From: Nitrososphaerales archaeon
Lineage (GTDB): Archaea > Thermoproteota > Nitrososphaeria > Nitrososphaerales > UBA213
DNA length: 64,000 nt
Direction of reading: 5' to 3'
Assembly (NCBI GenBank): GCA_965197925.1
Contig: CBDAOC010000019.1
Coordinates: 64,001 to 128,000, forward strand
The notes beneath the pieces are model-generated. The model was not told where the DNA came from. It ran no database searches and was given only the letters and a program-made list of their open reading frames with translations. This document shows, piece after piece, positions 8,733-55,251 of the stretch (its first letter is position 1; every line of letters starts with the position of its first letter). Made by a program: the position numbers and the translations under genes.

Positions 8733-8741
8733 AACGTCATA
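8733..8741 (+). promoter_or_regulatory. Element motif A (AACGTCATA)
   Basis: 27 nt before the ATG at 8760; recurs six times in the two viral segments. Confidence 0.6.
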
Positions 8742-8759
8742 TACTCCCCTCCCTATACC

Positions 8760-9047
8760 ATGGGCTTACTACAGATACTCACTACTGCACTACAGCAATA
8801 CAGGCAGGGTATAGTATTCGCTATCCAGCAGGGTAAGGTATATGATATTATGCTATATATCAACTCAATGAACAGCGTCCTACCAAAACAGTCACGATGC
8901 AAACTACCCAAGCCACCAAGCAGGGATAACACAAGACCGTCGTCAATGAGCACCGCACAATGGGAGTGGGCTAATGAGGCACTGCCAAAACTTGAGGACA
9001 CGATCAGCGAATACCTACAGAGCACATTCAAGGATATGGAACTATGA
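8760..9047 (+). CDS. Hypothetical viral protein
   Basis: 95 aa, coupled to the ATPase by an ATGA overlap, preceded by motif A. Confidence 0.65.
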   Translation: MGLLQILTTALQQYRQGIVFAIQQGKVYDIMLYINSMNSVLPKQSRCKLPKPPSRDNTRPSSMSTAQWEWANEALPKLEDTISEYLQSTFKDMEL

Positions 9048-10060
9048 GCGAACAACAACAAAAACACTACAGCGAGAGAACCACGACACTGCTAGGCATC
9101 CCCATCCTTCAAAAACACTCACCTAACCCCGTAGTCAACAATATCCTTAACCATAACTCGTTAAGCGGATATACGGGCATACTATCGATAGGACATAGCG
9201 GCTCAGGCAAAACTACGATAGTTTCCTTGTTATCCCACTTATTACACGAAAAACAAAACTTTGCGGTCTATGATTACGGGGCGGATGAACTGATGGACGT
9301 TAATAACATCATAAAAAAAATGCCAAAAGCACCGTCAATACTGAAATTCGATGATGCCAGCTACACTTTTGCGTCAATGTCTGAACCTGAGCGCAACAAG
9401 CTAGCGTCAGGCCTTACGACGATCAGGCATGAGGTTAAGAATCCAGTGATAGTGTTTATGAATATCCACTACAGCAAGGCACTCGAAAAATTCTTCAGGG
9501 ACACGGATTTCAAGATTCTCACATCAATATCGGATGAAGAAATGGATAACTTCCAAAAATTGTTTGGATTTAAAAACACAATGAAACTACATAGATTCAC
9601 CAGGCTATATCGCTCAATGATGCTGCGAAAAAAATTCATTATAGGCAAGTACACCTATTCCACACACAAACCATTCCGCATTGCATTGATTAGCGAATTG
9701 GGTAAACTGCATGGAGTTCTTTATTATCGTGATGCATGTAACAAATGCGTCAAGGATTTTCATACGGAAGAAATGCCCGCAAGGGATCTAGTGGATAAAT
9801 TACTTGCAGAAAATGGCAGGGATAAGACACGGTCATGCCTACGGTGGTATCTATATTTCAATCAGAATCGGAACACTGCAATTGACAGCAGGACACGTTC
9901 AGTATTCAATACGATAAACAAGTATGCACATGAATGCAAAATCGATTGGGATGAGATGGAAAAAATAATACATGAGGAATTATTCCGTGAAAGAAAAAAA
10001 CGACATGAAACACTGGTCAAGGTAACACATGAAAAGAAAACCGTGGATGATGCGGCTTGA
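9044..10060 (+). CDS. Viral P-loop ATPase (possible packaging/assembly ATPase)
   Basis: Walker A GHSGSGKT, Walker B ILKFDDAS, C-terminal CxxC. Confidence 0.8.
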   Translation: MSEQQQKHYSERTTTLLGIPILQKHSPNPVVNNILNHNSLSGYTGILSIGHSGSGKTTIVSLLSHLLHEKQNFAVYDYGADELMDVNNIIKKMPKAPSILKFDDASYTFASMSEPERNKLASGLTTIRHEVKNPVIVFMNIHYSKALEKFFRDTDFKILTSISDEEMDNFQKLFGFKNTMKLHRFTRLYRSMMLRKKFIIGKYTYSTHKPFRIALISELGKLHGVLYYRDACNKCVKDFHTEEMPARDLVDKLLAENGRDKTRSCLRWYLYFNQNRNTAIDSRTRSVFNTINKYAHECKIDWDEMEKIIHEELFRERKKRHETLVKVTHEKKTVDDAA

Positions 10061-10114
10061 TACCAGTCTTAACAACTCTTATCCAATGGCGAGCGGAATA
10101 AAATCCTAAATTCC

Positions 10115-10126
10115 AACGTCATAACC
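10115..10126 (+). promoter_or_regulatory. Element motif A (AACGTCATAACC)
   Basis: 32 nt before the ATG at 10147. Confidence 0.65.
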
Positions 10127-10146
10127 CTACAAATGATTGGTAGGAC

Positions 10147-11178
10147 ATGCTGAATGTCAACATCCCAGTCATAAAAAATAAGTACGTCATCATATTGACG
10201 GTCCTTACACCGATCATTTTTCTCAAGGCGATAATAATCCTCTCACATCCAACATGTATTGGTTATGACTGTAGTACCTATATCAGAATACTTGAGCATC
10301 CTGAAGAATGGCAGAAAAGGCACGGACTCATCGAACCACTGTTTTTCGTCATTGCAAAACCATTGATGTTATTATCCAGTCCTGATGACACCATAAAAAT
10401 AATACAGTTTGGTGCACATGCCAATCTTGCAGTCGGCACGTTCATCCTGATGCGCAAGCAGTTTGGCATGAATTCCGCAATAATTGGTACATTGCTGGTG
10501 AGTTTCATCGCACCAATGAACGTGTATGTAACGGAATTGGTACGCAACATGATTTCATTGAGCATTTTTCCATACGTCCTTTACTTCATTTGTAATAATA
10601 AAAATGAAACACCAAGACAACATGCCTACATCCTGATATTATGCGCTCTAATGCTATTCGCACACAGATCATCAATCGTACTCATTGGAGCAATAGGCAT
10701 CTACATGATCTGGCGACATAGGAAGTCAATATTACATATCCCAATAATCGTGGTATTGCTGGCGGCTGTAATTGGTTACGGCCTGGCGATACAGACCACC
10801 AGTTCGGCAGCAGGAAGCCCGACACCAGGACATAATCTAATCCTGTTGTTGCTACCGTATTTATGGGTCCTGGTCCCGATATTCAAGACAAGGCTCCACC
10901 ATCATTGGATGGTTAAAATTTTACTGCTCTCAGTAATTCCCTCATTGGTAATATTCCCATTTGTAGGATTCAGCATGGCACAGCGATTGATAATGGAGAC
11001 ATACCTACCATTCACCTACATGCTGGTCATCTTTATGTCAACGTTATTTGAGGGGAGGACACCATCATCAATAAGATCGTCACACCTACGAATAATTGCG
11101 ATCACATTACTATTCGTATTGCTTATCATTGATACCCCTATCTCACTAACATTCCTGATCACCAGGTATGGTCGGTGA
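10147..11178 (+). CDS. Multi-TM protein, GT-C/EpsG-like glycosyltransferase candidate
   Basis: About 9-10 TM segments, GYD..TY in the first external loop, EP.F, RNMIS and HRSS motifs. Confidence 0.55.
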   Translation: MLNVNIPVIKNKYVIILTVLTPIIFLKAIIILSHPTCIGYDCSTYIRILEHPEEWQKRHGLIEPLFFVIAKPLMLLSSPDDTIKIIQFGAHANLAVGTFILMRKQFGMNSAIIGTLLVSFIAPMNVYVTELVRNMISLSIFPYVLYFICNNKNETPRQHAYILILCALMLFAHRSSIVLIGAIGIYMIWRHRKSILHIPIIVVLLAAVIGYGLAIQTTSSAAGSPTPGHNLILLLLPYLWVLVPIFKTRLHHHWMVKILLLSVIPSLVIFPFVGFSMAQRLIMETYLPFTYMLVIFMSTLFEGRTPSSIRSSHLRIIAITLLFVLLIIDTPISLTFLITRYGR

Positions 11179-11568
11179 TAGATATTGATGACCGGGTATG
11201 ATAATAGGTATGATGTAGATGATTATGGCTCTGTAGAAACCATGCCATAAACAATCAACCCATGCATGTTGTAGGCTATCACTTTGGATGTCAACCTGTT
11301 CTGCATCTTCACCAGTCTTGATGCCATATGCCCACCAAACATCCTCTTTACCACATTCATAATTTTGGCAGGCTTGCTCTATCATGGATAGGCATGATAG
11401 GGATCTAACAGATTGATCTCACTGCAATTCTATATTCTATATACAATGGGCTAAAATCGGTATTGGGAAATAATAGTGGGAAAAAGTGGTTGGGAATGGT
11501 TGTTTTAGAAACCAGAACTAAAAATACCGCTAATCCTATATGTCAAGTTGTTCAAATAATGTACCTTA

Positions 11569-12378
11569 ATGGTTGACTGGTCATCAGTTGTCATAATACT
11601 TCTAGGAAGTGGCGGAGTTGCAAGTTTAGTGGGTTCTGTATTAGGATATTGGCTTGATAAAAAAGCTAAAGAGAGGGCTGAAATTATTGAAATGGCTAAA
11701 TTCAGGATGGAAAAAATATCTGATAGAATTCCAGATTATGTTATTTTAATGAATCTTTGTCAATGGCTTTCTGTCTCATTGAGGCGTATCTGTGATAACA
11801 ATTCAATAAGTTCTGACCGAGCTTTTATGCTAACAATGTTTTGGTTTTATGTCAGCCTATTACAAAAATCTCGCAATGTTTTTCTATTCAGGGGGGGACT
11901 TTTACTAGCCGATCAAGACGCTGAAAGTGTTATTGCCGGGCTTTATAATATGTTTAAACAAGAAATGGACGCATTCAATTTTCTTGATGGTTCCAAGGTA
12001 CGCCAATTAATTAACGAGGATGATCCGCCGTCCGTATTGGAGCGAGTCATTAAACATGAATGTGAACCTAATCACACTGAAGCAAATGGTTATTTTGAAA
12101 CATTTGTAAATTGGGTTTGTTATCATGGAAACCGTTCAAAAATTGAACATGTTGCAGATGTCTTACAATGCATGCATGAATTGATAATGTTTGAAACTAA
12201 TTATACATTCGAGAAATGGTATAATAAGAGAATCACAGCGGCGGGACAATTAGGAAAAGAAACTCTTAACCTGTTATATGAAAAACCACTGCTTGGTAGT
12301 ATAAAGGGCGAAAAAAAGACTTTAAGGGAATCAAAGCCAGGTTATTTCAGAAAGATCTTCATAGATAGAAGATCATAA
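11569..12378 (+). CDS. Hypothetical protein with N-terminal TM helix (AT-rich insert in the element)
   Basis: 269-aa ORF, T-richer codon usage than neighbours, lacks the element motifs. Confidence 0.6.
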   Translation: MVDWSSVVIILLGSGGVASLVGSVLGYWLDKKAKERAEIIEMAKFRMEKISDRIPDYVILMNLCQWLSVSLRRICDNNSISSDRAFMLTMFWFYVSLLQKSRNVFLFRGGLLLADQDAESVIAGLYNMFKQEMDAFNFLDGSKVRQLINEDDPPSVLERVIKHECEPNHTEANGYFETFVNWVCYHGNRSKIEHVADVLQCMHELIMFETNYTFEKWYNKRITAAGQLGKETLNLLYEKPLLGSIKGEKKTLRESKPGYFRKIFIDRRS

Positions 12379-12550
12379 AAATTCCTAAAGCTTATCCCGT
12401 TGGTACGATGGGAACATTTGATTCCATCTTTAACATGCCAAATATATAGTATAACCACCTAATAAGCGTTATATCCTGTCATACCTAATATCATTATCAA
12501 ATCCATCCCATCTTTCTCCATTACTCATTAACTTGTTGCAATTGCTTATT

Positions 12551-12613
12551 CTACCATCCACCTACATGCTGGTCATCTTTATGTCAACGTTATGAGGGGA
12601 GGGCACCATCATC
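12551..12613 (+). repeat. Duplicate of 11005-11069 (3' part of the GT-C-like gene)
   Basis: cacctacatgctggtcatctttatgtcaacgttat..gaggggagg.caccatcatc present at both sites. Confidence 0.85.
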
Positions 12614-12621
12614 CAGATTTT

Positions 12622-12634
12622 AACGTCATAACCT
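12622..12634 (+). promoter_or_regulatory. Element motif A (AACGTCATAACCT)
   Basis: 32 nt before the ATG at 12654. Confidence 0.65.
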
Positions 12635-12653
12635 ATTACACCATTTCACAGTT

Positions 12654-13121
12654 ATGAGAAGCCAACTATTCCTGACAACCATTGGTATTATCACGGTCAT
12701 TGCCCTGTTGTACAATTATTCAATGGCACCAACATCATTAACACTGACCGACAGCGATCACTATTTTATTGGCGGCGGATTCTCGGGGAACACGACATCA
12801 ACGACAATCAACTACATGACGGTATTTGGTGATAGCGTATCAGGCACTTACGATGACACATACATCACCATGCCGCATAATGCAACACTGTCAAATCTGC
12901 ATGTCACACATCATGGCGCAATACCTGTAACCTTCACCTTGCATCACAATGGTACGGCAACAGGGATGACTTGCACGACAACAGGCATAATTCAGGACTG
13001 CTCCGACACGACAGATACAGTCCAAGTGGTAAAGGGCGACACAATAGCACTAGCATACACCTTGAGTTCAGGTGTTGATAGCGGTCATTTCAGGTACACA
13101 ATGGAGGTAGATCCAGCTTAA
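12654..13121 (+). CDS. Membrane-anchored beta-rich viral structural protein candidate
   Basis: N-terminal TM helix, Thr/Gly-rich beta domain with several N-x-T/S sequons. Confidence 0.6.
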   Translation: MRSQLFLTTIGIITVIALLYNYSMAPTSLTLTDSDHYFIGGGFSGNTTSTTINYMTVFGDSVSGTYDDTYITMPHNATLSNLHVTHHGAIPVTFTLHHNGTATGMTCTTTGIIQDCSDTTDTVQVVKGDTIALAYTLSSGVDSGHFRYTMEVDPA

Positions 13122-13127
13122 CATTTT

Positions 13128-13141
13128 TTTCTTTAATATAT
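13128..13141 (+). promoter_or_regulatory. Element motif B (TTTCTTTAATATAT)
   Basis: Upstream of the ATG at 13170; recurs seven times in the two viral segments. Confidence 0.7.
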
Positions 13142-13169
13142 CGATACAAACCCCGTATAGGAGTTACAA

Positions 13170-13487
13170 ATGCCAACACTTGACGCAGGCCTGTTTCTCA
13201 TCATATCGGCGATTGGGTTCATCTTCATGTTCGTTTCATCAAGAACCTATATCGACGTGGCGTTTCGCTTGATACCTGTTTTCCTGTTTTTCGGCCTTGG
13301 AGTAGCACTGATAGCAGAGTATGAGGTGTCCTATATCGCAGAAAGCACTGACGGCGCCACGACGGTCACGGAAACCAGGTACATACTGCGGAACAACACG
13401 GACTGGCTGGGATGGGTATATGTGATGCTTGGAACCTTTTCTATTGTCCTATTTTACAAGGAGATAATGTACGCAAGAGAGGCATGA
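13170..13487 (+). CDS. Small 3-TM viral membrane protein
   Basis: 105 aa, three hydrophobic segments, preceded by motif B. Confidence 0.65.
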   Translation: MPTLDAGLFLIISAIGFIFMFVSSRTYIDVAFRLIPVFLFFGLGVALIAEYEVSYIAESTDGATTVTETRYILRNNTDWLGWVYVMLGTFSIVLFYKEIMYAREA

Positions 13488-13505
13488 GGACAGGGGATGG
13501 CATAG

Positions 13506-13868
13506 TTGATACGGATACTGATGCGGCTATACCTACTGATGCTAGCAATCAATGTCTGCTTGGCATTTGTCACGGAGGCCTACGGTGAGGCAGGCATCAT
13601 AACGGACTTTGGAGGGTCAAGCAATCTTGAGATCCTGAATGAGAAATTCAAGTCGGAAACGGAGGACCTGTCACTGACAATCATCCCGCTTGGCGATTTC
13701 ATAGCAGCAGTACAATTATTTTTCAATATAATTGGTGGTGGATATATAATACAAATGTTGCAACTGTTCGACCTTTCGTCGACATTTGTAAGTGGCATAC
13801 AGGTGATAATCGCATTCATAACTGTGCTGGCGACAATCTACTTCATCTCGGGTCGTGGAAGCATGTGA
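13506..13868 (+). CDS. Small viral membrane protein
   Basis: 120 aa, N-terminal and two C-terminal hydrophobic helices ending in ..ISGR. Confidence 0.65.
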   Translation: MIRILMRLYLLMLAINVCLAFVTEAYGEAGIITDFGGSSNLEILNEKFKSETEDLSLTIIPLGDFIAAVQLFFNIIGGGYIIQMLQLFDLSSTFVSGIQVIIAFITVLATIYFISGRGSM

Positions 13869-13892
13869 AGGGACCCATATATTCTTGGCAAC

Positions 13893-13906
13893 TTTCTTTA
13901 ATATAT
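13893..13906 (+). promoter_or_regulatory. Element motif B
   Basis: TTTCTTTAATATAT; its C lies 33 nt before the ATG at 13929. Confidence 0.7.
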
Positions 13907-13928
13907 GGTAATCGGGGTTCATTCGACA

Positions 13929-14183
13929 ATGGCAGTTAACCTGATAATACGTTTCATCATATCAATGTTTGCCCTAGGACTTGGGATGTTCATTTTCATG
14001 CCAGTACTATACCAGCTTGCCTACAACGAGGACCTATGGACAGGCTTGCCCTCGGACGTCTTGCAGACACGTGACTACGTCTATAGTATCCTGATGGCGA
14101 TGCCGTTGATTTCATTCGGTGCGTTAATCCTCTGGGGGTACATGCGGGCAACAACGCAGGACCCCTACGAACAGTATCGCTAG
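13929..14183 (+). CDS. Two-helix hydrophobic protein, spindle-virus VP1/VP3-like capsid candidate
   Basis: 84 aa, helix (..FIFMPVLYQ)-loop-helix (SILMAMPLISF..) with Pro positions like fusellovirus VP1/VP3; start refined using motif B spacing. Confidence 0.55.
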   Translation: MAVNLIIRFIISMFALGLGMFIFMPVLYQLAYNEDLWTGLPSDVLQTRDYVYSILMAMPLISFGALILWGYMRATTQDPYEQYR

Positions 14184-14191
14184 GTGGTATA

Positions 14192-17100
14192 ATGGCAGGC
14201 AACGGACTGACATCCGTATTGATATGCGTAATGTTGCTGGTAGGGATGCCCTTCCTGTCGTTTTTCTCCACGGCACAACAGGCATCCCTACCATATGCGG
14301 AAGCACAAGGTCTTGAACTCGTGGAACGTGGCAGGGATTTTGAACTATATTGGAACGGCAGTACGGAACAACACACAATGGTAATAGGCGTGCCGACCTG
14401 GGTATTGGATGGTAGTGAAGGGGAAGGAGGATACAGGTCCTACACATTCAGGGAACTGGGAAACAATGTGGTCGAGGTAAAAACAGGACTGGTGTCAGGC
14501 GTGGTTTATGAGGATCATATGGAATTGTATGATCCCGACCTCACCGAACTGAGGGCGGTTGAAAGGCTTGATCTCCATATCGGCGGCAAGGTGACACTGG
14601 CATTTACAAGCCAGGTGGTTAGCCACGATACGAACGGCATAGACATAACCAACCACTATAACCTGGATCAGGACACCGTAACAATATGCACCATAAGCAT
14701 CACATATTCCTTCCAGGCAGGCAAACCCCTGTCCAGGCTAATAAGTGACAACGATTCATGCCCAAAGGGGCTATCAAAAGTACTTGACACCGTATGGCAC
14801 ATGCCGACAACAATTGATGAAGTGGATACGGCCAAATCAAATGCAACCAAATCAAGTGAATCAAATGACAAGCTATCATCGAAACCAATAACCAAGACAA
14901 ACAATAATGACATTGACAGCATACTGATGAAGAAAAATGACACGATGTGGATAAGGGAAGCCACCATGCCGAACAAGGACGTCCTTGATTCGATAAAGAT
15001 GAACAATAATAGCGTGAGATTCAGTTATGACCTTGGCCAAGATGGCATTGACTTCAGACATGCAGACACATACACGTCAGATAACCCAACGGTAGATGGT
15101 GATGTTACCGATAACGATTCAGATAGTGGTTGTAATGCAGGTGATGAAAAAATTACAAGTAACACATCACTTAGAGTTAGTAGGGGGAACTATATTGTTG
15201 CCTGTACTAGGGCATTCGTTCAATGGGATATAACCTCGATTCCTGACAGGGCCGATGTCACCAATGTCCAGTTTGGTTTTCAAATTACTGGTCCCAATAA
15301 TTCGTCAGGATGTGATTTCAAGGAGATGGACACGGAACCGGATCAGGCAAGTGCGGCAACCATATTCACTGACATTGGTGATGGCACTACATTCATCAAT
15401 TCAGACACGACATGCGACACGCAGGGCAGTAACAAGCTTGTTGACCTGGGCGTGGCTGCAGACGCAGATGTTGAGGCGCAGTTGTCAGCCGACTGGTGGG
15501 CGGTGGGAATAAAGCAGGATAATGAATCCACAATTGCAAACATGTATACATACTTTAGGTCAGAAGAATATACAACCGCAACCCCAAGACCGACATTGAC
15601 AGTAACATACACGGTTCCACCAAACAATCCACCTGTAGCAGACGCAGGCGACAGTAGGATAGTCAATGAAGGGAACAGGATCACCCTGGACGGCAGGGGG
15701 TCCAGCGACCCTGACGGTGATTCCCTGACATATTCCTGGACACAGGCTTCAGGTATCACCGTGACACTGTCCAACCCTACCGCTGTCAGGCCAAAATTCT
15801 TCGCACCGGAAGTCCCATCACTGAGAACCATGGTATTCGTATTGGTAGTCAACGATGGCACCGTGGACAGTTCACCTGACAGCGTCACCATATACGTTAT
15901 CAACACCAACGACCCACCGGTGGCAGATGCCGGTCCCGACCAGACAGTCGATGAAGGAACGAGCGTTACCCTGGATGGCGGGGATTCAAGTGACCCTGAT
16001 AATGACTCTATAACATATTCCTGGGTACAGTCTTCCGGTACCACAGTGACCCTGTCCAGCTACAGCACAACCAATCCAGTATTCACCGCACCATCCGTTT
16101 CAACACAAGCAGTCCTGGTATTTGCGTTAACTGTCAACGATGGCACAGTGAACAGCCAGGCTGACAGCGTTACCATATACGTCAACAATGTCGTGGTGAT
16201 ACCTACAACGGTAATACAGCCAATAAGACTCACACTTGCAAACACGGGCTCAGGGATAACCTACAGCGTGACGACATGCAGTGCATCACCATCAACTATT
16301 TCCGGTGACGGCATAACGCACAATATATCGGTAGATGCAGGCTGTAGCATCACGCTAACAAGTTCGATCAGCAGTACTACACGATATGTATTCGACAATG
16401 GTTCTATATCCAGGTCCTTCACCAGTTGTTCTTCAGGAACCTGTTCACTACAGTCACATGACTACTGGTACCAGCGCAATTCAGAGTTCGACATAACGAT
16501 AGTCTATGGCGGATTCATGCAGCCATTATTGAGTTACACAAAGACGGGCACGGCATTATCACAATTGTTGTCAATAGGCACAAATTCCATCTGGGCTGAT
16601 AACGGCACGCCCTGGACGGTGAGAAACCCGGAAGTATCAGGTGACGAGCGATTCATGAGCCAGGACTACACCAGTGGGATCATACCATCCATAAATGACA
16701 TGACATTCGTGCACCAGTTTAACAAGGGACTTGCATATTCACTGCCACTGGGAGGGACGCTGCCAGGCGTTCCCACCATCACATTAAGCCAGAACCAGGC
16801 ATCAATAAGCCATCCTCTTACACTGACAGTCACGGACACATGGACGGACGCAACGGGTTACACGACATCCACGATCAACAATGGTAATGAAAGATTCATG
16901 CCTCCTGGAGGTGGCGTGATAACGGACGCCACGGGTCTCACAATACCTTATTATCTGCAATATAGGTTCACGATAGGATTCACGATACACGCAGGCGGCA
17001 TGCCATTGAATGCAGCAGACAGGATCTATACCACATACGAAAATATGACCAATATAGTGATAGTGACATTTGACTCTCCAAGGTCACAGCAAATCTGGGC

Positions 17101-19128
17101 TGACAATTCCAACATAATGACATTACCACGGTTGACCACAACAAGCAATGCAGCAGAGCGGCATGTAACGCCAGGCGCAACCACCGTAACACCATCACCA
17201 GGAGGGTCGCACATACAGGTTTATTTCAACCAGTTGGCACTTGACCTCAGGACCACGGGTACACCAGTCCCGAAGCCAAGGATCACGTTCACGGGTAATG
17301 CGACCACAGTGGATGCACCACTTGGGGAAACACGGTCAACACTCTGGGCGGATCGTGGTTCAACATATACAATAGAAAGGACGGTAACGATTTCCCCTAC
17401 AGAGCGCTACAGCACGGACGCAGCAACGACAGCGGCAGTAACGGCAAGCGAGACACGCATAATACCATACCGGCATGATTTCCTTGTAGGCAACCTGGCA
17501 ACAAGCAGTAACTATGCAACCCAGAACGGCAAGGCGTTGAGGACCAAGATCACCAGTCTCAAGGTAACAATGTCAAACGGCACTTCGTTCACGGACCCCA
17601 TGGGGTGGCTTGGCCAGATGGACGGTGTAGGAACAAACAACGTGGACTGGTATGTATGGAATAGCATTAACAAGACAAATCCATCACCATTTACAATCGG
17701 TTCGGATACGACAATCACGCTACAGGGTCTTGCCGCAGACAACAACAACATCCAGATCGGCATTGACGGCAATGCAATAATCACGGCAGTGACATATGAT
17801 ACGTCCAAGTCCACATTCACCTGGACCGCTGGCATTGCAAGTTCCACAACAAGCGGCACATACGATCTTGTCGTGGACATGGTTGACGACACATACAGGG
17901 AAGAACCAACACTCCTGACGATCAACGAGGGAAGATATGCGAATACATCATCACGCTGGAATTATGATGATGAGAGACACATCTTTACATTCAAGAATGT
18001 ACGGTTCGATGACATACGATCAGAACCGGAACAATACAACAAGTTCATCCTGGGATTCTTTGCGACAGAGTTGACACTGGATATATGACGAATTCGACAA
18101 CACCAACTTCCTGGACGGCGACTATTGCGCCGAGGTGTTCGGGACACAGAACACGACCAGGACTAACCTATGCACGGACGGGCACAGCATAAATGCAACA
18201 ATCAATGGCAACGTGGAATACGTGAGGCTCACACGATCACCGCTTACGGATGACGGCTATTGGAGGGAGTTATGGGTGAGAGGTCCATCCTCGGGAAAGA
18301 CGACACTAGACTTCTTCATGACGAACCAGACAGATCGTAACCCAAAGGAATACAGGCTGTTCCTGCAGACGTCAACATCAAAATGGACCCCTGACGTAAC
18401 AGTATGGCACATCCACAAGCAAAGTGAACTGGTCGAGGACATCAGCATTGAGCGCCAAAGGATGGACTCGGAATTGAAGACACTGATGCACCTGGTTGCA
18501 GGGGAAACCTACAGGCATGAGCTATACCATATCAAGACAGGAGAGACACTGGAACTCGGGGAACTGAAGGCGGATGCAGACCTGAACAAGTTCTTCCTAC
18601 CGGAACTGGGCATTGTCTCACAGGGCGAGGTCTGGCTTGTAAACCATGTGCGTGCAAGCAACTACACGTCACTGATAGTGAACATTAGCAAGATCACACC
18701 ATCCAACATCAACCTGCACGTATATGATCTGATATCGACAGATACATGGTATAACCATACCGGTGTCACCCATATTGAACAAGTAATTCCGATCATGGCG
18801 AACAGGACGTACTACGTTACTGGGTATTCAACAAAGTCCCGAGAGTGCGGTGCTCACATTCTTCAGCCCACGCCAAAGCATAGGCATAAAGGCACTGGGA
18901 GGATTCTCGGAACTCGGCCTGGTATTCGGAGTCCCCATTGCAAACCTCTTCATCCTGTCACTGGCATCCGTGGCACTTATCAGGAACACATACATATTCT
19001 TCATAATCCTAGGTGCGGCATTGGGACTGCTCGGGCTGATTGGCATACTGTCAATTGATAACTGGGCATGGGGAATTATCACCGTCATAATAGCCATAGG
19101 TGTCATGATGGGACGTAAGAGTTCATGA
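14192..19128 (+). pseudogene. Giant viral adhesin/tail protein split by two frameshifts (ORFs 14192-18088, 18135-19058, 18850-19128)
   Basis: Signal peptide, DNRLRE-like domain (RAFVQWDITSIP...RSEE..PRPTLTVTY), two PKD/REJ repeats (NNPPVADAG), Thr-rich beta repeats, C-terminal TM cluster; frames join by +1 shifts near 18085 and 18820. Confidence 0.75.
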
Positions 19129-19152
19129 CACTGGAAGTGCAGTTCTATAATC

Positions 19153-19166
19153 TTTCTTTAATATAT
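19153..19166 (+). promoter_or_regulatory. Element motif B
   Basis: TTTCTTTAATATAT; its C lies 34 nt before the TTG at 19190. Confidence 0.7.
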
Positions 19167-19189
19167 GATCACAATCACTTCATATTATA

Positions 19190-19645
19190 TTGCCTTTCGG
19201 AATAAGGGACAGGATAAGCAGCATCACAAAAAAATACAAGGAAAAGCAGGCTTTAAAATACAAGACCAAGAAGGAACTTGACACCATTTATGAGGAAGCG
19301 AAGGCCAAGCAAATGAAGAAAGAGGTTGCGAAGAAGGCAAGGGAAGCCGCAAAGAAGGAATCACTGAGAACCTATCCAAGACAGTCACCAATAGACCGTG
19401 TTGTCGGTGGACTGCAAGCAATGAACCGTGTTATGAAAGCGACAGATTCGGATAGGAATCCATTTGCACATGGGGTAGAGGTAAAGAAGAAGAGGAGTAA
19501 AAGTAAGAGCAAGCGTAAGACCATGAGAAACTATCTACCACAATCGAATAACTTGCTTTACAACCATCCTGCAAGGCGTAACACAACCATCATCAATAAG
19601 GACCCATTTGAGGCCGAGGGCAAAAGATGGCTTGATGGCATGTGA
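19190..19645 (+). CDS. Highly basic viral protein (possible DNA-binding/nucleoprotein)
   Basis: Lys/Arg-rich 151 aa (KKKRSKSKSKRK), preceded by motif B. Confidence 0.6.
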   Translation: MPFGIRDRISSITKKYKEKQALKYKTKKELDTIYEEAKAKQMKKEVAKKAREAAKKESLRTYPRQSPIDRVVGGLQAMNRVMKATDSDRNPFAHGVEVKKKRSKSKSKRKTMRNYLPQSNNLLYNHPARRNTTIINKDPFEAEGKRWLDGM

Positions 19646-20034
19646 AAAGGCGCACGTTGGAAAATCCAATGTTATACAGGAATTTCATAAAATCCATACG
19701 GCGTAAGGTAGGCCATGACATTGACCACATCGACCTGGAAGAGATAGACCGCACATTGGAACCTGGCGAGGCAATGAACGAGTTAGAAGAAAAATATCCT
19801 TACATTAACCTTGGTCACATCCATAGAAAGTCAGACCCTATTTCTGAAGGGATGGAAGATCTCCAGCGCATGCATGATGAACGGTCACAACGTTCACGGA
19901 CAATCGACGGCATGAAGAAGGCTAAAACAGTTTTCAAAAATCCGTTCGACCCAGACATTGGAAAATGGATGAAAGACCCACATCGTTATGACGTCTTTGG
20001 GATTGACACACCAAAACGCAAAAGGAAAAAATGA
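19642..20034 (+). CDS. Hypothetical viral protein
   Basis: 130 aa, GTGA overlap with the upstream gene. Confidence 0.6.
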   Translation: MKRRTLENPMLYRNFIKSIRRKVGHDIDHIDLEEIDRTLEPGEAMNELEEKYPYINLGHIHRKSDPISEGMEDLQRMHDERSQRSRTIDGMKKAKTVFKNPFDPDIGKWMKDPHRYDVFGIDTPKRKRKK

Positions 20035-20073
20035 GGGGTTAAATTGGACAAACCAATTTTATAAATCTACTGA

Positions 20074-21243
20074 TTAATATCCAGGTAAAGGTGCCAGTTC
20101 AATTGGTTCAATTGGTTCAGTCGGTGTAGTAAGTGTCTCCTCTGATTCAGGCGCAACATCTTCTTCCGATGTGGAATCAATGCCAAGGAACTTATCAGCC
20201 TGTTCCCCGACAGAGGTAATGATGCCCGATAAGTTCGACATCAGTATTGCAAACCCGAGAATACCTGCAATGACAAGTATCATGGGTATCGATTTCTTCT
20301 GCCTTTTTGACAAGCGCTTGATCTCATCATGCCCGTGCTTGATCTCGGATGCAAATATGTAGACGATCATGGGGTCATAGGCACGTAGTCCCACCAATGA
20401 AAAATTTGTATTAATCATCATTGGTTGGCGTACCCCGTATTCCTGTAGCAGCAAAGTGACATCCTCCTTATTCTTGGTCTTCTCTACAAGTTTGGCAATA
20501 TCCTTCTTCTCTAATACCCTGGAGCCAGAATCCATGGGATAGAAGTATAGCTGTTGTCTTTTGGAATTATATGCATACCCTCTCCGTTGCTCAAGTATTC
20601 CATGCTTCGAAAAGGAGTGGCTCTTCCCAAACGGCAATTTAATGATGTCAATATGCCTGTTTGGCAGTTCAACAATGGCTGCGGCATTCCATCCTTTTGG
20701 AAACGTGGACTTCATGTTCTTACTGTACCTCTCGAACATCTTGCCCCTGTAATGCACTTCCGTAATCAGGGAAACAAGTCCATCGTCATCATGCTCACTA
20801 TATGAACACACAAACCGCTTGACACTGGCATCCAGGGAAGTGATATTATTGACACAGTCCTGGACATCATAGTCGGAATCACGGTCCCCATTATCAGATA
20901 CACCTTCCGAAACTGTTGCCTTGACCTCTTCATCTATGCGTCTCAGGTTCTGGAATGACTTGCATTCCATTAGCGTATCACATTCCTCCTTGGCCAAGAA
21001 TGACATGAGTTTGTTTACGGAATGTAAGTCAATAGGCTTCCCATTGGTAGAATCATAAAAGTATATCAACTGCTTGCCATACCTGTATGCGTACTTGCTC
21101 TCGACCTGGTAGACACCATACTTGCATACAAAGAACCGTCCCTTTATTGCACGCATTGATATGAACTCAACGGTCTTGTTGGGCATGATCAACACGGCGA
21201 TTGGGTATCGTGTGTACCTCATGTTAAAAACTGGTATCGTCAT
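20074..21243 (-). CDS. Viral membrane-anchored protein with an internally duplicated domain
   Basis: 389 aa, two homologous blocks, C-terminal TM helix and acidic tail, preceded by motif A on the - strand. Confidence 0.65.
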   Translation of the reverse strand: MTIPVFNMRYTRYPIAVLIMPNKTVEFISMRAIKGRFFVCKYGVYQVESKYAYRYGKQLIYFYDSTNGKPIDLHSVNKLMSFLAKEECDTLMECKSFQNLRRIDEEVKATVSEGVSDNGDRDSDYDVQDCVNNITSLDASVKRFVCSYSEHDDDGLVSLITEVHYRGKMFERYSKNMKSTFPKGWNAAAIVELPNRHIDIIKLPFGKSHSFSKHGILEQRRGYAYNSKRQQLYFYPMDSGSRVLEKKDIAKLVEKTKNKEDVTLLLQEYGVRQPMMINTNFSLVGLRAYDPMIVYIFASEIKHGHDEIKRLSKRQKKSIPMILVIAGILGFAILMSNLSGIITSVGEQADKFLGIDSTSEEDVAPESEETLTTPTEPIEPIELAPLPGY

Positions 21244-21256
21244 ACCATTGCCTTAT

Positions 21257-21276
21257 TTTCTTTAATATATGACGTT
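21257..21276. promoter_or_regulatory. Overlapping divergent motifs B (+) and A (-)
   Basis: TTTCTTTAATATATGACGTT: motif B before the ATG at 21291, reverse AACGTCATA 33 nt before the ATG at 21243. Confidence 0.7.
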
Positions 21277-21290
21277 ACATTTCAAACCCC

Positions 21291-21599
21291 ATGCCGACAT
21301 GTTTTGAACTTGGTAACTGCGATATCGCTGCAAAACCACTTGAAACAATCCTACTTCCATTCACCAACCTGATAGGCGACTTCATATACCCGGCATTCTG
21401 GGGATCAATCCTCTTCATTATATGGCTGCGTACCCATGACTCGACATTTGTCGGATTGGTAGGCGTGATAATAAGCACGGCCTTCATAGGCGGTGCCGTG
21501 ACGCTACTGCCCGAAGCCCTCTATATTGGAATCATGTTGTTGGGCGTGTCGGTAGGCATATCACTCTACAGATTATTAACAGAGCGATTGTTCAACTAA
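21291..21599 (+). CDS. Small 3-TM viral membrane protein
   Basis: 102 aa, hydrophobic, preceded by motif B. Confidence 0.65.
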   Translation: MPTCFELGNCDIAAKPLETILLPFTNLIGDFIYPAFWGSILFIIWLRTHDSTFVGLVGVIISTAFIGGAVTLLPEALYIGIMLLGVSVGISLYRLLTERLFN

Positions 21600-21605
21600 A
21601 AATTT

Positions 21606-21618
21606 AACGTCATAACCT
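21606..21618 (+). promoter_or_regulatory. Element motif A (AACGTCATAACCT)
   Basis: 33 nt before the TTG at 21639. Confidence 0.65.
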
Positions 21619-21638
21619 ATGTCGTACAACATCAACCA

Positions 21639-21998
21639 TTGTCAAGCGATAGACTGATGGAACTTATACAGGAGAGCAACAGCAACAGGCAAGGCGATAG
21701 CTACTACCCTGATCCCATGAGACAACTCTACTCTTCAATGATAAGCACTGATGCCCTTCCACTGGTGGTCTTTGAAATCGAACACATACCGTTACTGATT
21801 CATGCATTGCCACCAAAACTAAGGCATCTTGCAAGGGATTATTATAATCTGTTCATCCGGTCACTGACTGCAACCAGGTCAATCAACGGCGCCCTGATAA
21901 AGGAGTTGACACAGACCAAGGTGCGCTATGAGTACGATGATGTAAAGGGCAAGAAGGGCATCAACAAGATGTTTGCGCCCAAGGGTGAGCAGGCATAG
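21639..21998 (+). CDS. Hypothetical viral protein
   Basis: 119 aa, preceded by motif A. Confidence 0.6.
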   Translation: MSSDRLMELIQESNSNRQGDSYYPDPMRQLYSSMISTDALPLVVFEIEHIPLLIHALPPKLRHLARDYYNLFIRSLTATRSINGALIKELTQTKVRYEYDDVKGKKGINKMFAPKGEQA

Positions 21999-22000
21999 GT

Positions 22001-22372
22001 ATGCAGGTCAAGTGCAGAAAACTCAAATCAAGCCTCAGGGATAATCGAAGACATATAGTGTTCTGTGAGAATTGTAGGCATTATACCTGTATTACCGATG
22101 GCCACTGCGTGTGCTGCTTCGGTAGGGTCAGGCTGTACAAAAAAAATAACAGGTGGCTGGCAAGTACACTGAACCTTGCTGCAAGACAATACAGGCAACA
22201 GGTGGAGGAATTTCTCCTGTTTCCAGAGGCCAACATTTCAATCATAATAAAACGCAAGGGGATTACTTATAAAATCCCGATCAAGATCATAGCCCTTTGG
22301 GCACAGAACCTCCCACGCCAAAGAATCCTGGCGTATGCCCATGACAACATAACAACGATAACAACGCTGTGA
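22001..22372 (+). CDS. Viral zinc-finger protein
   Basis: CENC...CVCC motif. Confidence 0.6.
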   Translation: MQVKCRKLKSSLRDNRRHIVFCENCRHYTCITDGHCVCCFGRVRLYKKNNRWLASTLNLAARQYRQQVEEFLLFPEANISIIIKRKGITYKIPIKIIALWAQNLPRQRILAYAHDNITTITTL

Positions 22373-22385
22373 TTCTTTAATATAT
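22373..22385 (+). promoter_or_regulatory. Element motif B
   Basis: TTCTTTAATATAT; its C lies 34 nt before the TTG at 22409. Confidence 0.7.
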
Positions 22386-22408
22386 CATTTACCATCAAAA
22401 AGATAATA

Positions 22409-23407
22409 TTGTCATCCGAATTGTCATTGGAAATCGTCAACAGGCTTGCAGGGGACGAGGAATCATTGGAGGCCGCAAAAAAATATTACATGGCAAGGTC
22501 GGTACCACGGCAAACGAGTGTGGGAACGGCCATGGGTGCGAGGCGAGCAGGATTTGTAATACAGGCAGAGATGCGTGCCGGCGAGACCTTCAGGTCCACG
22601 TTGACGGAAAGGGGGTTTACCGATGAGGAACAAGCCAATATCTCACGTAATCTATTCAATATCTTTGAAACCCATACCTTTCGGGATTTCAATCCCAGGG
22701 CTACACACGGGTATCCAGACGACACAAGAATCAGGTCTGCCAAGGCGGTATTACGAGGAACACCAAAGGACCCAAGGCAAGTCAGGCTGGATGCGGCTGC
22801 AAGACAATTAGATGATCGCTCACGTAGGATAGACACGACAATAAAGGCAATACAACAAAAAAATCCAGGAATATCATATGAGGCCGCAAAACTCAGGGGA
22901 AGGGGACTGGTACAGGGCGGGAGAATAACAGGTGGCGCTGGAATAAGCGTTGTACCGGCATCTACCACAGTTGAAAGAACACTGGCAAAAGCAATTGACA
23001 GCCGTGGCAGTGTAGACCTTGCAAGGCTTTCAAAAAGTGAAATGAAGATGCTTGGCGCAGCACAGGCCAACGGAAGAAACGTCCTGACCTCGATAGAGGG
23101 AATGAAGGTGGCACCACAGACCGCAGCGGCAATAACCGTTGGGAAAAGCACGACAATATATCCATCAAGGACTGGTGTCAGGGCAGTAACAGGTACACAT
23201 GGACACCGTAGCAGGGCTGTAAGGTATGCCGCATCGGAATTCGATTTAGCAGGAACCGTTGATGCTGTGACACCAGAGGAACTTGCGACATCCAGGATAC
23301 CCCTTTTCCTATTAGGTTTTGACCAAGGAATCACGTCAATCAAAAATAATATACGAAGAAGTATCGAGTCTGAGATAAACACATTACCAATGAAAATTGA
23401 AACCTGA
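22409..23407 (+). pseudogene. Arg/Ala-rich viral protein truncated by an IS fragment
   Basis: The last ~36 codons are the antisense of a transposase 5' end. Confidence 0.65.
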
Positions 23408-51202: not shown

Positions 51203-51456
51203 AGAAAGAGCCCGACTCGACTCCATATCTTTCCCTCTTTTTCTTTTTACTAATTCCTTATCATTTAAGATTTGCTTCTGTTATATCATAATTATCCTAG
51301 GCCACACTGCTATATGTGTCAAAGAGTTCGGTAGTTCAGTTGTAAAGCATTGTGATTTTCCAAGAGTCAGTTAGACAACTCTCCTTTTTATTTATAATTT
51401 TGATGTTTTTTATCTTTTGTAAATTCTATTGTCCACTAATTTCTAGTGCAATCCAT

Positions 51457-51545
51457 TTGTGATAGAATAGATACTATCGTATCAAATGGTGTACTTTTAC
51501 CTATAACATACAAATTATATTTATGGAGACGAGATCGGGGGAAAC
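51457..51545 (+). repeat. Degenerate copy of the 3' end of the CPBP gene (about 5240-5333)
   Basis: tactatcgtatcaa..ggtgtactttta..ataacatacaaattatat...agacgagatcggggg shared. Confidence 0.85.
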
Positions 51546-51546
51546 A

Positions 51547-51611
51547 ACTTAGAGCTTATCCGAAAATTAACATCATAGCCTAATTGTTTATACCGAAACA
51601 GATCTAGAATA
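51547..51611 (+). repeat. 65-bp dispersed repeat, probable orphan IS left end (copy 2)
   Basis: Near-identical to 8347-8411. Confidence 0.75.
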
Positions 51612-52292
51612 TACGAAAACGTAAACTAGCCATTTTAAAATTTTGACAAATCTGACGACCATTATATGAATAAAAAATAATGAATGAATCACGCAAGGCA
51701 AGGTCATGATGAACTTTAGCAATTTAATCTGACCAAGTGATTGAATCAGAGCCTTATATAATTGAGTACTTAATGGTAGAACTTATATTGTTGGATTGCC
51801 TGAATCAAAAATTCTCTAGCTTGTTTATCTTCTACATACATATCTATAGATGAATCAGGTTTTGGTTTGAATCTAATACGCTTACAATTAGGATCATCGC
51901 ATTCTTCGCAGTTTGTTCAATATTACTGTTCAATATTACTACCATGCTTACTTCGGCAATGTAGCTAGTTATTCATTCTTCTTCATTCCCAACTTTCATC
52001 TGCACCACCTTTCAAAATCCTGAACTAGAACAAAAAATACTTATACACAATACCAATGCTGACACAGTTCCATTGTCTATAGATTATATTATCCCTGTCC
52101 CCAATCCGACTCCGTCATTATACATGAAATCATATTGTGCAGATGCTACAGCGTTTTTTGGATCGATTTCTTTACGGTAAGCATACGTACCTTTGCATAC
52201 GTCTATATGTCCGCTATAAAGTACATGTTTGTATTCTATATGTCCGTTATAACGGATACCCTTATATATCGGCTATAATTTAGTATTCCTCA

Positions 52293-54045
52293 TTGGTACT
52301 AGGGGGTAGCCAAATTCAAAGATACACTAAATCCTGATCTTGAAAAACAGCTGAGGGAACTTGAGAAGGGGATAGCCAAATTCAAAGATACACTAAATCC
52401 TGATCTTGAAAAACAGCTGAGGGAACTTGAGAAGGGGATAGCCAAATTCAAAGATACACTAAATCCTGATCTTGAAAAACAGCTGAGGGAACTTGAGAAG
52501 GGGATAGCCAAATTCAAAGATACACTAAATCCTGATCTTGAAAAACAGCTGAGGGAACTTGAGAAGGTAACCAAATTCAAAAATGCGCCAAAACTACCGA
52601 GTGACGAGGAGATCCTTAGAATCCTCTATCATCACAATCCTTGGTGGATGAAGAAGCCTATACCGGAAGCCAAACTCAAAGATTTCAAAAGGCGTGACTA
52701 CCACAAACTACTTGAACAATTACAGAATGATAAGATAGTAGCCATAATAGGTGCCAGACAGGTCGGGAAAACGACATTAATATACCAGTTGATCAACGAA
52801 CTAATTTCTAAGACAAATCCACAAAATATTTTCTTTCTGTCTTTAGATGACCCGTATCTTAATGTGACATTTCAAAGTTTGGGGAAGATATTTGATCTGT
52901 ATGCTAGAACCATCATCAAAAAACCACTCGATGAAATTAAGGATCGGGTTTACTTCTTCCTAGATGAAATTCAAGCAATCGATAGGTGGGAGCTCGTGCT
53001 GAAACGTTGGTTTGACCTAGGTTATAAAATCAAGTTTGTTATATCAGGCTCATCAAGTGTTAGCATATTACATGGAACTTCAGAAGCCCTTGTTGGCCGT
53101 ATCAGGCCACAAATTGTTTTACCCATGAAATTTTTGGACTATGTTAGATTCAAGGAGCATGATGAAATTGGTAAAATCGTTAATACGACCAATTGGGATA
53201 TGCGGCGAGCCCTTAGGTATGCCCTAACAGAAAAAGAGCCAGATAATTTTTACGAAATGCTAAGAGAGGAATCCAAGGCTTTAGCAGGTGTAAAAGATAA
53301 AATGCTTGCGCATCTTCAACAATATTTTCTCAAAGGGGGTTATCCGGAGATGGTACCCATTGATGATATAGTTACATGTGCAAAAAATCTTTTGGATTAT
53401 TTGTATTTGACGATATACAAGGATATATTACGAACTAATAAAGTAAGAGATCCCGCAGCACTGGAAAATCTGTTTGCAATATTGGCAAGGGAATCATCAA
53501 ACAGAATCAACCGTACGAAATTAGCAAAAAATCTTGATCTCAAGAGGGAGACTTTGAATACCTACATCTATTTACTGAACAACGCTTTCCTCATCTCTGA
53601 AGCTGAATTTTATTCAAACAGTAGGGTTAAGAGAGCAAGAAGAGAGAAAAAAATGTATGTAAATGATATAGGAATTCGAAACGCAGCTGCATCTACATTT
53701 GACGAACAAATACTAACGAATACAACTGAATTAGGAAAGATCGCTGAAACAGTCATTGCAGATCATACAAGACGACTGCAATTCAACTTGGAACCATCTC
53801 ATGTTCCAAAAATATTCTACTGGCGAGACGTATATGAGGTTGACATGGTGATAGATTTATTCCAGAAATCATTACCAATGGAAATAAAATACAGGGAAAA
53901 TATATCCAATTCAGATTTAAGAGGGCTTGAAGACTTCAATAAGAAATTTAGAACACCGTTATCATTGATGATCACCAAGGATTATCTTGATATGCAGAAT
54001 TCAATCATATTCATACCAGCTTGGCTTTATCTGATTCTATGTTAA
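52293..54045 (+). CDS. AAA_14/DUF4143 ATPase with N-terminal tandem repeats; start frameshifted at a G5 tract
   Basis: NPWW, GARQVGKTT, FFLDEIQ, ISGSS, GGYPE, EVD..MEIKY; the repeat is in frame with ORF 52648-54045. Confidence 0.8.
52307..52581 (+). repeat. 66-bp coding tandem repeat (4 copies plus a partial)
   Basis: GATACACTAAATCC at 52321, 52387, 52453 and 52519; encodes GIAKFKDTLNPDLEKQLRELEK. Confidence 0.97.
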
Positions 54046-54530
54046 ACTCCTAAATTGATGCCGGCCGAACTTTCTAGAGATGCTGATAATTATATAAACT
54101 GCTTTATATTGGTCAAGCATATTATACGATTTAATATGGAAAAAAGGGATTTGGATATGATGGTTGCAGAAGACCTGCAACATATCCCCAAAAGGAGACG
54201 ACATTCAGGGCGAGCTTCGAATGTTGTATAATGCTATAAGACGACATGATCTGACAGTTGGCGATTCGAAAGAGCAGATTTTATCTCATTGTCTTGAAAC
54301 ATTAAAACAAGATATCCCGATCAACAGCCCATTTACGACAGAAGCTTCTTCAGGTTAATTATTGAATAAATTAATTATCTCCCTACAGTTAATCGCTAAT
54401 TTGGGTGACGATTACCTCCCTTAGTTACAAGAACTAAATACAATATCACTTGTAAAGTATGATACAAGTCATATACATTCATTTATGCCTAGCCGCCTCA
54501 TAACTAAAAAAGAGATAGGGTTTGGTTCGC

Positions 54531-54761
54531 TTACCGGTAATCTGCAAATCCACCAAACATGCTAAACAGCGCAAAGAATAATCCCACTGGGAGTATTCCT
54601 ATTACAGTCCAAGCATAGGACTTTGCATTGGCACATGCCCTGACACCGTCGCCCTCTGTTGGGCAAGCGATTGCTCCGTCAATATTGGAGTAGATCAGGA
54701 TACCAATTATGATACCTGTTGCGACCCCAATAAATCCCATTACGAAAGGAAGGTTTATCAT
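54531..54761 (-). CDS. Spindle-shaped-virus major capsid protein candidate
   Basis: 76 aa: hydrophobic helix (GIIIGILIYSNI), Cys-paired loop, second helix (AWTVIGILPVGLFF); motif B upstream and a T-run terminator downstream. Confidence 0.65.
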   Translation of the reverse strand: MINLPFVMGFIGVATGIIIGILIYSNIDGAIACPTEGDGVRACANAKSYAWTVIGILPVGLFFALFSMFGGFADYR

Positions 54762-54792
54762 TTGTGTTTCTGATCGAATTGCCAAAGAGATG

Positions 54793-54806
54793 ATATATTA
54801 AAGAAA
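54793..54806 (-). promoter_or_regulatory. Element motif B
   Basis: Reverse complement of TTTCTTTAATATAT upstream of the capsid-like gene. Confidence 0.7.
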
Positions 54807-54891
54807 ATAATTTAGTATATTAATGAAATTAGTTTTGTCAGTGATTGGTAAAATTCTCCTGTTCATCTTTTTTGTTCCGTAGGAACCTGTT

Positions 54892-54904
54892 AGGTTATGA
54901 CGTT
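54892..54904 (-). promoter_or_regulatory. Element motif A
   Basis: Reverse complement of AACGTCATAACCT. Confidence 0.6.
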
Positions 54905-55237
54905 GAATTTTGTCAATGATGTTATCATGAATTGTTAAAAAATGAGTTGGGAAATTATCACGTTTGTCTGTGCTATTTTCTTTTACCCGTTCATAATTAC
55001 TTCATCACCTTTCTTGTGTATGTCAGGATCTTGTCAGTCATGACGATAGCTATGTCCTGCTTTGTATTTCCTACCTTTCTTACATCGATGACCTCGCATG
55101 TCTATTTGTGTCTCCCGAACATCCTCTCATTGACCGTGCTAATGTACTTTGTACCATCTCTGTGTATGTTGCTAAAATACAGCCCGTGGTTACCGTAAGG
55201 ATTTTTTGTTCACATTGGTTTAAGATGTCGTGTGATG

Positions 55238-55251
55238 ATATATTAAAGAAA
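55238..55251 (-). promoter_or_regulatory. Element motif B
   Basis: Reverse complement of TTTCTTTAATATAT, upstream of a decayed ORF (about 54998-55215). Confidence 0.6.

Follow-up and report, generated by a model that had tools for sequence, protein, structure and literature searches.

How archaeal viruses without an RNA polymerase of their own redirect host transcription to their late genes is an open question (PMC5569661). It is raised here by two short motifs, A and B, in a 64,000-nucleotide (nt) stretch, the window, of a Nitrososphaerales archaeon (GCA_965197925.1, contig CBDAOC010000019.1, positions 64,001 to 128,000), where provirus fragments occupy positions 8403-23297 (segment 1) and 54500-59680 (segment 2), with host housekeeping genes between them. 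Judged by its genes, the element is a decayed, fragmented, integrase-encoding provirus related to the Nipumfusiviridae, a spindle-shaped-type virus of an ammonia-oxidizing archaeon (AOA). A first-pass annotation had proposed that the motifs form an element-specific promoter code. We found that A and B depart from the host promoter consensus in complementary ways, A having a weak TATA box and B no TFB recognition element (BRE). The motifs are probably functional promoters, and both a temporal role and a viral reader for the two classes are plausible.

Motifs A and B at the position of the host TATA box

All 13 sites of the first-pass annotation were recovered at the same coordinates and on the same strands. 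Motif A (AACGTCATA, a 9-mer) occurred six times in the window, against a shuffle mean of 0.67, and motif B (CTTTAATATAT, an 11-mer) seven times, against 0.16; none of 100 shuffles reached either count. The distances to the start codon also agreed with those reported, 27 to 38 nt for A (27, 32, 32, 33, 33, and 38) and 31 to 42 nt for B (39, 33, 34, 31, 34, 42, and 33), but the ATG that follows the B site at 55248 meets TGA at once, after which the frame is open for 35 codons. Motif A has the form TTYAAC-GTCATAW, with its 3' end typically 22 to 23 nt ahead of the start codon. As had been noted, neither full motif occurs in the host parts of the window.

In the whole 2.91-Mb genome, the 9-mer matched 38 times and the 11-mer 14 times. 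The genome holds at least seven further diverged copies of the element, and the 46 kb of element copies, delimited by hand, contained 14 of the 9-mer matches (24 outside; 36-fold denser inside) and 9 of the 11-mer matches (5 outside; 112-fold denser inside). Likewise, TTYAACGTCATW was found 12 times in element copies and 4 times outside, and TTCTTTAATATAT 9 times and once, respectively, so that the enrichment ranged from 36- to 558-fold depending on the pattern. The matches outside the copies are at about chance level, since extrapolating the window shuffle rate to 2.86 Mb predicts ~30 for the 9-mer and ~7 for the 11-mer.

The host set consisted of 668 de-duplicated upstream regions (open reading frames [ORFs] of at least 150 aa, first ATG, free upstream region only). 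Its consensus was an A-rich BRE followed by TTTAWAT, and TTWAWA starts peaked at -32 to -28 from the ATG. With the start codon as a proxy for the transcript start, A and B occupy the position of the host leaderless TATA box: the boxes start at about -29/-30 in A and at -29 to -32 in B (two B sites have short leaders), within the ~26 to 34 nt before the start expected for a leaderless box. In the host register, A reads TTYAAC-GTCATAWM and B reads TTTTCT-TTAATATA. The class B box, TTAATATA, scored 4.4 bits (host median, 4.1) and is an ordinary TTTAWATA-like box, while the class A box, GTCATAWM, scored 0.8 to 2.2 bits, near or below the host 5th percentile (1.8), and is not TTTAWATA-like. Contrary to the view that motif A is not TATA-like, the box keeps T2, A4, and A6 of the TATA box in register. 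The BRE of class A has an A at -3 in 6/6 sites and scored at the host median, without a purine at -6. The class B flank never has an A at -3 (0/7), and six of the seven flanks fall within the lowest 2% of 85 host flanks, so that a purine-rich BRE is lacking. This flank is T-rich, as the first-pass annotation had read it: it consists of pyrimidines only at 6/7 B sites and at 1/85 host strong-TATA promoters (Fisher p=7e-8; host set chosen regardless of flank).

Host counterparts were rare. The A-type sequence AAYKTCAWAW stood at the TATA position in 0/668 host upstream regions, and the bare box TTAATATA served as the host TATA in 6/668, including IleRS at window position 33568. One host gene (C20:740004) has a B-like promoter, TTCTTTAATATA, at promoter distance, and an A-like site outside the delimited copies (C17:17628) has an ATG at 23 nt but no ORF of at least 80 aa. 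With this host gene and the bare boxes, B is not strictly element-specific. Conservation was seen in six genomic copies of the ORF119 promoter, in which the 9-mer diverged by 0.074 (7%) and the spacer by 0.453 (45%).

On the plus strand of segment 1, class A promoters precede the operon of ORF95 and the ATPase (promoter 8730-8742; genes 8760-10060; the spacer is 17 nt here and 22 nt in the C19:428k copy), a glycosyltransferase-like gene (PMT_2, 10147-11178; promoter 10112-10124, 22 nt ahead), ORF155 (12654-13121; promoter 12619-12631, 22 nt ahead), and ORF119-ORF123 (promoter 21603-21615). Class B promoters on the same strand precede the small membrane proteins ORF105-ORF120 (13127-13141; a short leader with GGAG, and a T run that may also serve as upstream terminator), ORF84 (start 13929 by homology) with a PKD-domain adhesin at 14192-18088 (13892-13906), the basic proteins ORF151 and ORF130 (19152-19166), and ORF332 (22371-22385), which is interrupted at 23298 by a multicopy repeat. 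At 21256-21279, B(+)21260 (21256-21270, to ORF102 at 21291) overlaps A(-)21276 (21279-21267, to ORF389 at 21243), and the two form one bidirectional promoter.

The features of segment 2 lie on the minus strand. The putative major capsid protein (54531-54761; 76 aa, two hydrophobic segments, 51-61% identity to homologues in related viral contigs) has a class B promoter at 54793-54807. The class A promoter at 54895-54907 leads to a 22-codon ORF whose stop falls within the B site at 54803, so that A and B stand in tandem ahead of the capsid gene. The last class B site (55238-55252) precedes the ATG-TGA described above, probably a pseudogene of a short ORF. The rest of the segment (55282-59680) contains a 5' remnant of ORF151, ORF304, a DUF5131 gene, a DNA methylase, and small zinc-finger ORFs, without a full A or B motif, and is interrupted by an IS5-like element at 59683.

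Equivalent signatures in related viruses

An ATPase profile retrieved relatives in 66 metagenomic loci and matches in 7/400 other genomes; the ATPase tree is a quick version with long-branch warnings. In one clade (clade C), TTWAATTTCAWAT stands upstream of the homologues of ORF95, ORF105, and ORF84 and aligns base for base with TTYAACGTCATAW, carrying TTC in place of GTC in the same register. The pattern [TA]T[TA]AATTTCA[AT]AT gave 46 matches in 19/66 loci and was confined to one 25-row branch of the tree (support 97); an ATG lay 22-23 nt downstream of 39 matches (background, 2.2% per position), and a start codon of any kind lay at this distance from 41. A provirus in the genome G040 is the sister of our element in this tree (support 92, long-branch warning). 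There, 13 of the 14 genome-wide sites of CTGACTCTTAAAA lie within the provirus; an ATG follows at 22-23 nt in 8 of 11 inspected, and they precede homologues of ORF95, ORF84, ORF389, and ORF119. A second motif, TTTTGTTATATATGTGA, stands before the capsid gene and before one large ORF, where this B-type promoter lies shortly beyond the ORF119-ORF123 homologues. No attachment (att) repeat was found for the G040 provirus. Among 81 host genomes of the family of G040 (G140 included), the clade-C pattern with an ATG at the same spacing occurred once each in six.

The A-type cores thus differ by lineage (GTCATA, TTCAWAT, and CTGACTCTT), while the 13-mers of the three lineages have in common T-34, A-32, T-28, A-26, and A-24, and T2, A4, A6, and the A at BRE -3 are retained in all three signatures. 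Among 17 capsid genes of relatives, 12 of the 13 promoters scored were B-like with anti-consensus BRE flanks (4 unscored). Fixed spacing, conservation in diverged copies, equivalents in related viruses, and near-absence from host promoters support the proposal of two viral promoter classes, and the signatures at equal spacing in related viruses point to a dedicated late-gene switch.

A different regulatory design was seen in another provirus, L041 (G092:C18, 750-8460), in which virion genes have ACTCTGTA repeats, arranged in pairs, in the interval from the TATA box to the start codon.

Possible readers of the motifs and rival explanations

The reading we favor, to which we give about an even chance on the sequence evidence, is that A and B are core promoters of the assembly/virion module of a temperate spindle-type AOA virus, read by host TBP, TFB, and RNA polymerase with the help of a viral activator. 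Unaided, A and B would recruit host TBP and TFB poorly and so remain inactive in the lysogen. Once the virus is induced, a sequence-specific activator encoded by it would stabilize the host TBP-TFB-polymerase complex at these promoters, in the manner of Ptr2 and TFB-RF1 at weak host promoters. Class A, which serves mostly non-structural and assembly genes (the ATPase operon, glycosyltransferase, ORF389, and ORF119-123), would probably act earlier, and class B, which serves the capsid, small membrane, adhesin, and basic proteins, would probably be late and strong. Expression would begin with the repressor module and proceed to A and then B; in sister copies, the ribbon-helix-helix (RHH)-like genes of that module have host-like promoters (BRE 1.3-3.1 bits in the five scored), a third class. 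The change of the class A sequence between lineages at constant spacing could reflect co-evolution with its reader. The model builds on known activation at weak-BRE promoters (established in PMC5937170 and PMC5817253) and by TBP recruitment (these papers and PMC5501381), and on the retention of T2, A4, A6, and the A at -3.

Several results weigh against this reading. No convincing viral activator was found, and profiles of host TFB and TBP found no homologue in the viral ORF sets, the G040 provirus included. A blind scan revealed no strong fixed-spacing motif in three Nipumfusiviridae genomes or in the clades of L049-L064 and L074, and the same scan scored the window itself only 4, against 3-4 for those controls. 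The assignment of genes to classes is not fixed: ORF84 and ORF105, which are B here, are A-like in relatives, and in another copy a decayed A-type promoter stands before ORF151. The capsid promoter of the relative L085 is host-like, beside the 4/17 unscored, and many metagenomic loci are near-duplicates, so that the counts overstate independence. Several of the B T-runs could be upstream terminators. Finally, the repeat promoters of the virus HF2 are active without viral proteins (PMC8707807).

The activity of the HF2 repeats and the switching of class among relatives also favor a rival explanation, in which ordinary host TBP and TFB read both motifs without a viral factor, the classes set strength only, and the uniformity arose because recombination within the virus copied promoter cassettes. 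The host-median box of B, the host-typical BRE of A, and the host gene with a B-like promoter fit it as well. However, spacers of different genes are unrelated, and those of different copies have diverged by 45% while the non-consensus bases persist; host promoters show no enrichment of C at box position 3 (11 versus a background of 10.6); and without help, a BRE-less promoter would hardly account for strong expression of the capsid gene. We consider this explanation a serious possibility, if a rather doubtful one.

As to a viral reader, ORF123 (22001-22372, plus strand; zinc-ribbon and alpha/beta domain) is only a candidate regulator. It belongs to a conserved zinc-ribbon family of ~50 clusters, its predicted fold had no match above Z 4.2, and full-length homologues among the loci compared were found only in this lineage and G040. 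A helix-turn-helix (HTH)-tyrosine recombinase co-occurs with the signature-bearing lineages and was not found in the three Nipumfusiviridae genomes tested. VLF-1 offers an analogy for a recombinase acting as an activator, but an integrase is the simpler reading given the full catalytic set, the Xer/Int-like fold, and relatives in 38/401 genomes of the order. For a telomere-resolvase role, the fold ranks gave no support over Xer/Int. The Sulfolobus A(N)TTTC element was ruled out for class B by its position.

The first-pass annotation had also suggested an alternative host TFB or TBP, for instance a stress-induced paralogue by which the virus would time its late genes. The host, in which amoA is present, has five TFB and two TBP genes; one TFB (G000 C19:527962-528501) has an altered recognition helix (ITGVTLRKL versus VTEVTIRNR), and Halobacterium TFB paralogues differ slightly in BRE preference (PMC5501381). 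This possibility is nevertheless disfavored, and we regard it as improbable, because the A-type sequence, like that of clade C, is found in no host regulon; moreover, viruses of the same host order show at least three different signatures, and the two TBPs are nearly identical.

More improbable still would be a viral protein that replaces TBP or TFB outright, with the signature as its own core promoter, by analogy to the herpesvirus late TBP mimic that binds TATT and to the T4 late sigma factor. The 22-23 nt spacing is far tighter than the ~8-nt spread of the host, the signature sits in the core itself and differs by lineage, and another family of AOA viruses is reported to have TFII-like proteins (bioRxiv 10.1101/2025.08.23.671958). 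Against this stand the empty profile searches mentioned above (the viral TBP/TFB fold comparison covered two folded proteins only) and the bases kept in all three A-type signatures, as expected if host TBP and TFB still bind.

We would be surprised if the motifs were instead operators of a viral repressor, such as the RHH-like pair, or non-transcriptional signals, with the true TATA a few bases upstream (TTYAACGT then CATA). For 2/5 A sites, the upstream register (-36) gave the best host-matrix score, and only there does GTC lie directly 3' of TATA, recalling SIRV promoters with GTC downstream of TATA (PMC5569661); deletion joints also lie close to the ORF119 A site. But the motifs have no dyad or tandem symmetry, every site is directed at a start codon at fixed distance, and in the homologous clade-C motif TTC replaces GTC in the same register.

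A broader proposal, which we hold to be doubtful, is a dedicated late-transcription system in which a viral protein would read the lineage-specific core promoter in place of host TBP/TFB or as their specificity subunit, with TBP-limited and TFB-limited classes ordering the assembly and capsid genes. If true, archaeal viruses would have an equivalent of phage late sigma factors and of the late promoters of herpesviruses. The motifs provide exact and orthogonal sequences for tests in three virus lineages, with predictions that come down to single bases (C at box position 3, T at BRE -3); G040, with an apparently near-complete provirus in a complete genome, is usable as a test case. The motifs also help to fix start codons and to recognize a poorly annotated virus group in metagenomes, and could give inducible promoters for AOA.

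The provirus, its copies, and known systems

The ATPase at 9044 matched all 11 "Nitrosopumilaceae spindle-shaped virus" records (tblastn, 25-31% identity), ten of which now form the family Nipumfusiviridae (PMC12451623). ORF389 and ORF102 matched this family by profile (92-93%), and the capsid protein had no tblastn match and a weak hhalign match (probability 29%, E=6e-4). Since only the ATPase aligned by blastp in the three of the 11 genomes that were compared (25-29%), the fragmentary element is by this test a relative of the Nipumfusiviridae, not a member. This family is the nearest named one, rather than the thaspiviruses, whose genomes the first-pass annotation had named for comparison. 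Thaspiviridae have a linear genome, a protein-primed polymerase, and NSV1-like proteins; no polymerase family was found among the 61 window ORFs, homology searches gave no NSV1 match (the presence of NSV1 in the searched collection is unchecked), and no link to Thaspiviridae was found. The copies are integrated, and some have a tyrosine recombinase. IMG/VR scans with the ATPase, capsid, and recombinase yielded no confirmed relative, and ORF95 and ORF119 searches no usable match.

Segment 1 lacks a capsid gene. The 5' end of its ORF151 is repeated in segment 2 with 80% nucleotide identity, so that the two segments may derive from different related copies. Contigs from four DNA runs (three studies, one run possibly the source sample) span the window with the same deletion joints. 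An insertion sequence (IS) left end (8346-8408) precedes segment 1, and an IS remainder without its first ~140 bp (59683-60376), oriented the same way, follows segment 2. Host genes take up 31 kb in between, an arrangement that suggests an IS-linked rearrangement of one or two proviruses. The left end of the element (8403-8720, plus strand) has a TCTAG/AA junction with the IS5-like left end (~8346-8408), followed by direct and inverted AGGTAGCACAC repeats, putative att arm sites or an origin. AGGTAGC...GCTACCT inverted and direct repeats upstream of ORF95 (8484-8613), with a look-alike in the G040 provirus (L033 17814-17871), are likewise a putative origin or integrase arm sites.

Eight copies (window 8346-8410; G000 C19:41988, 143623, 428861, and 460.6k; C20:31773, 293514, and 1021.4k) all start with TCTAG/AA. 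Six of them lie in the palindrome ACAGATCTAGATCTGT, which belongs to an abundant IS5-like element; both orientations occur, and this site is also entered by other DNA. The pattern looks like site-specific integration into the IS. Five copies encode the tyrosine recombinase, with invariant R, K, R, W, and Y and an Xer/Int-like predicted fold; upstream of it are a small zinc-finger ORF and a divergent pair of small RHH-like genes, assigned by eye (Pfam gave none). The mini-derivatives L001, L003, L004, L005, and L007 (G000 C19:37-42k, 424-429k, and 456-460.6k; C20:31.8-36.5k and 1017-1021k) keep the left end, the class A operons (ORF95 with or without the ATPase; ORF119-123), a variable RHH-like pair, and the recombinase, without capsid and membrane-protein genes. 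G130:C72 has a similar gene set. By analogy to pSSVx, these are possibly satellites. Their origin by A-to-A recombination was unsupported, the joints lying upstream of the motif. Isolated remnants of the capsid gene or of ORF84 (the latter with a B-like upstream region) lie at G000 C13:79500-79754 (a capsid-gene remnant, 99.6% identical to the window over 223 bp), C18:169092-169235, and C17:73814-74047.

Elsewhere in the window, a 269-aa ORF (11569-12378), missing from the C20:293k copy, is flanked by near-identical 63-nt repeats (11005-11069 and 12551-12613). Past the adhesin ORF (14192-19128 region), the overlapping ORFs 18135-19058 and 18850-19128 may be a frameshifted gene, and run X2 differs from the window at 18102-18285. 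Tandem repeats of 66 bp at 52301-52581 overlap a 93-aa ORF.

We found no description of such motifs for AOA viruses in the literature covered, subscription papers and supplements lying outside it, and the word "promoter" is absent from the main texts of PMC10866085, PMC6563490, and bioRxiv 2025.08.23.671958. The element shares with the Nipumfusiviridae (Ni 2024, PMC10866085; ICTV 2025, PMC12451623) a homologous ATPase, ORF95, ORF389, and ORF102, a small hydrophobic capsid protein, and an AOA host. It differs in its ATPase, 25-31% identical and on a separate tree branch, and neither the A-type signature nor the HTH-tyrosine recombinase of this lineage was found in the three Nipumfusiviridae genomes tested.

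A close parallel is with the head-tailed virus HF2, where 58- and 29-bp repeat blocks make up two viral promoter classes (PMC8707807). In both systems, the two repeated classes are tied to gene modules and conserved in relatives, bidirectional cases included, and viral zinc-finger readers have been proposed, as candidates. Unlike in HF2, the signature here alters 13-15 nt of the BRE/TATA core itself, and the spacers are unrelated. SIRV1 and SIRV2, with their GTC element and the host activator Sta1 (PMC5569661, PMC1635249), also have a virus-specific cis element at the core promoter, and motif A contains GTC; but the GTC of SIRV is found downstream of a TATA box that is itself normal, whereas here, if transcripts are leaderless, it makes up box positions 1-3, where relatives have TTC. 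As with the conserved early promoter of rudiviruses and fuselloviruses (Bhoobalan-Chitty 2024, PMC11065993), a regulatory sequence marks one viral gene class; that motif, however, is a consensus-strength BRE plus TTTAWATA before early anti-defense genes, whereas A and B run counter to the consensus and stand before genes for assembly and the virion. Class B resembles the TFB-RF1, Ara box, and ups A(N)TTTC promoters in combining a good TATA with a poor BRE (PMC5937170, PMC5817253), but there the activator has a site of its own, upstream of the BRE (A(N)TTTC at -44 to -39), whereas in B the T run takes the place of the BRE and a site farther upstream was not found. Two viral promoter classes (HF2), a virus-specific GTC (SIRV), and a conserved early promoter (rudiviruses and fuselloviruses) were already known; the present case differs in having a signature that rewrites the core elements themselves, in TATA-weak and BRE-less forms, and that changes by lineage at constant spacing.

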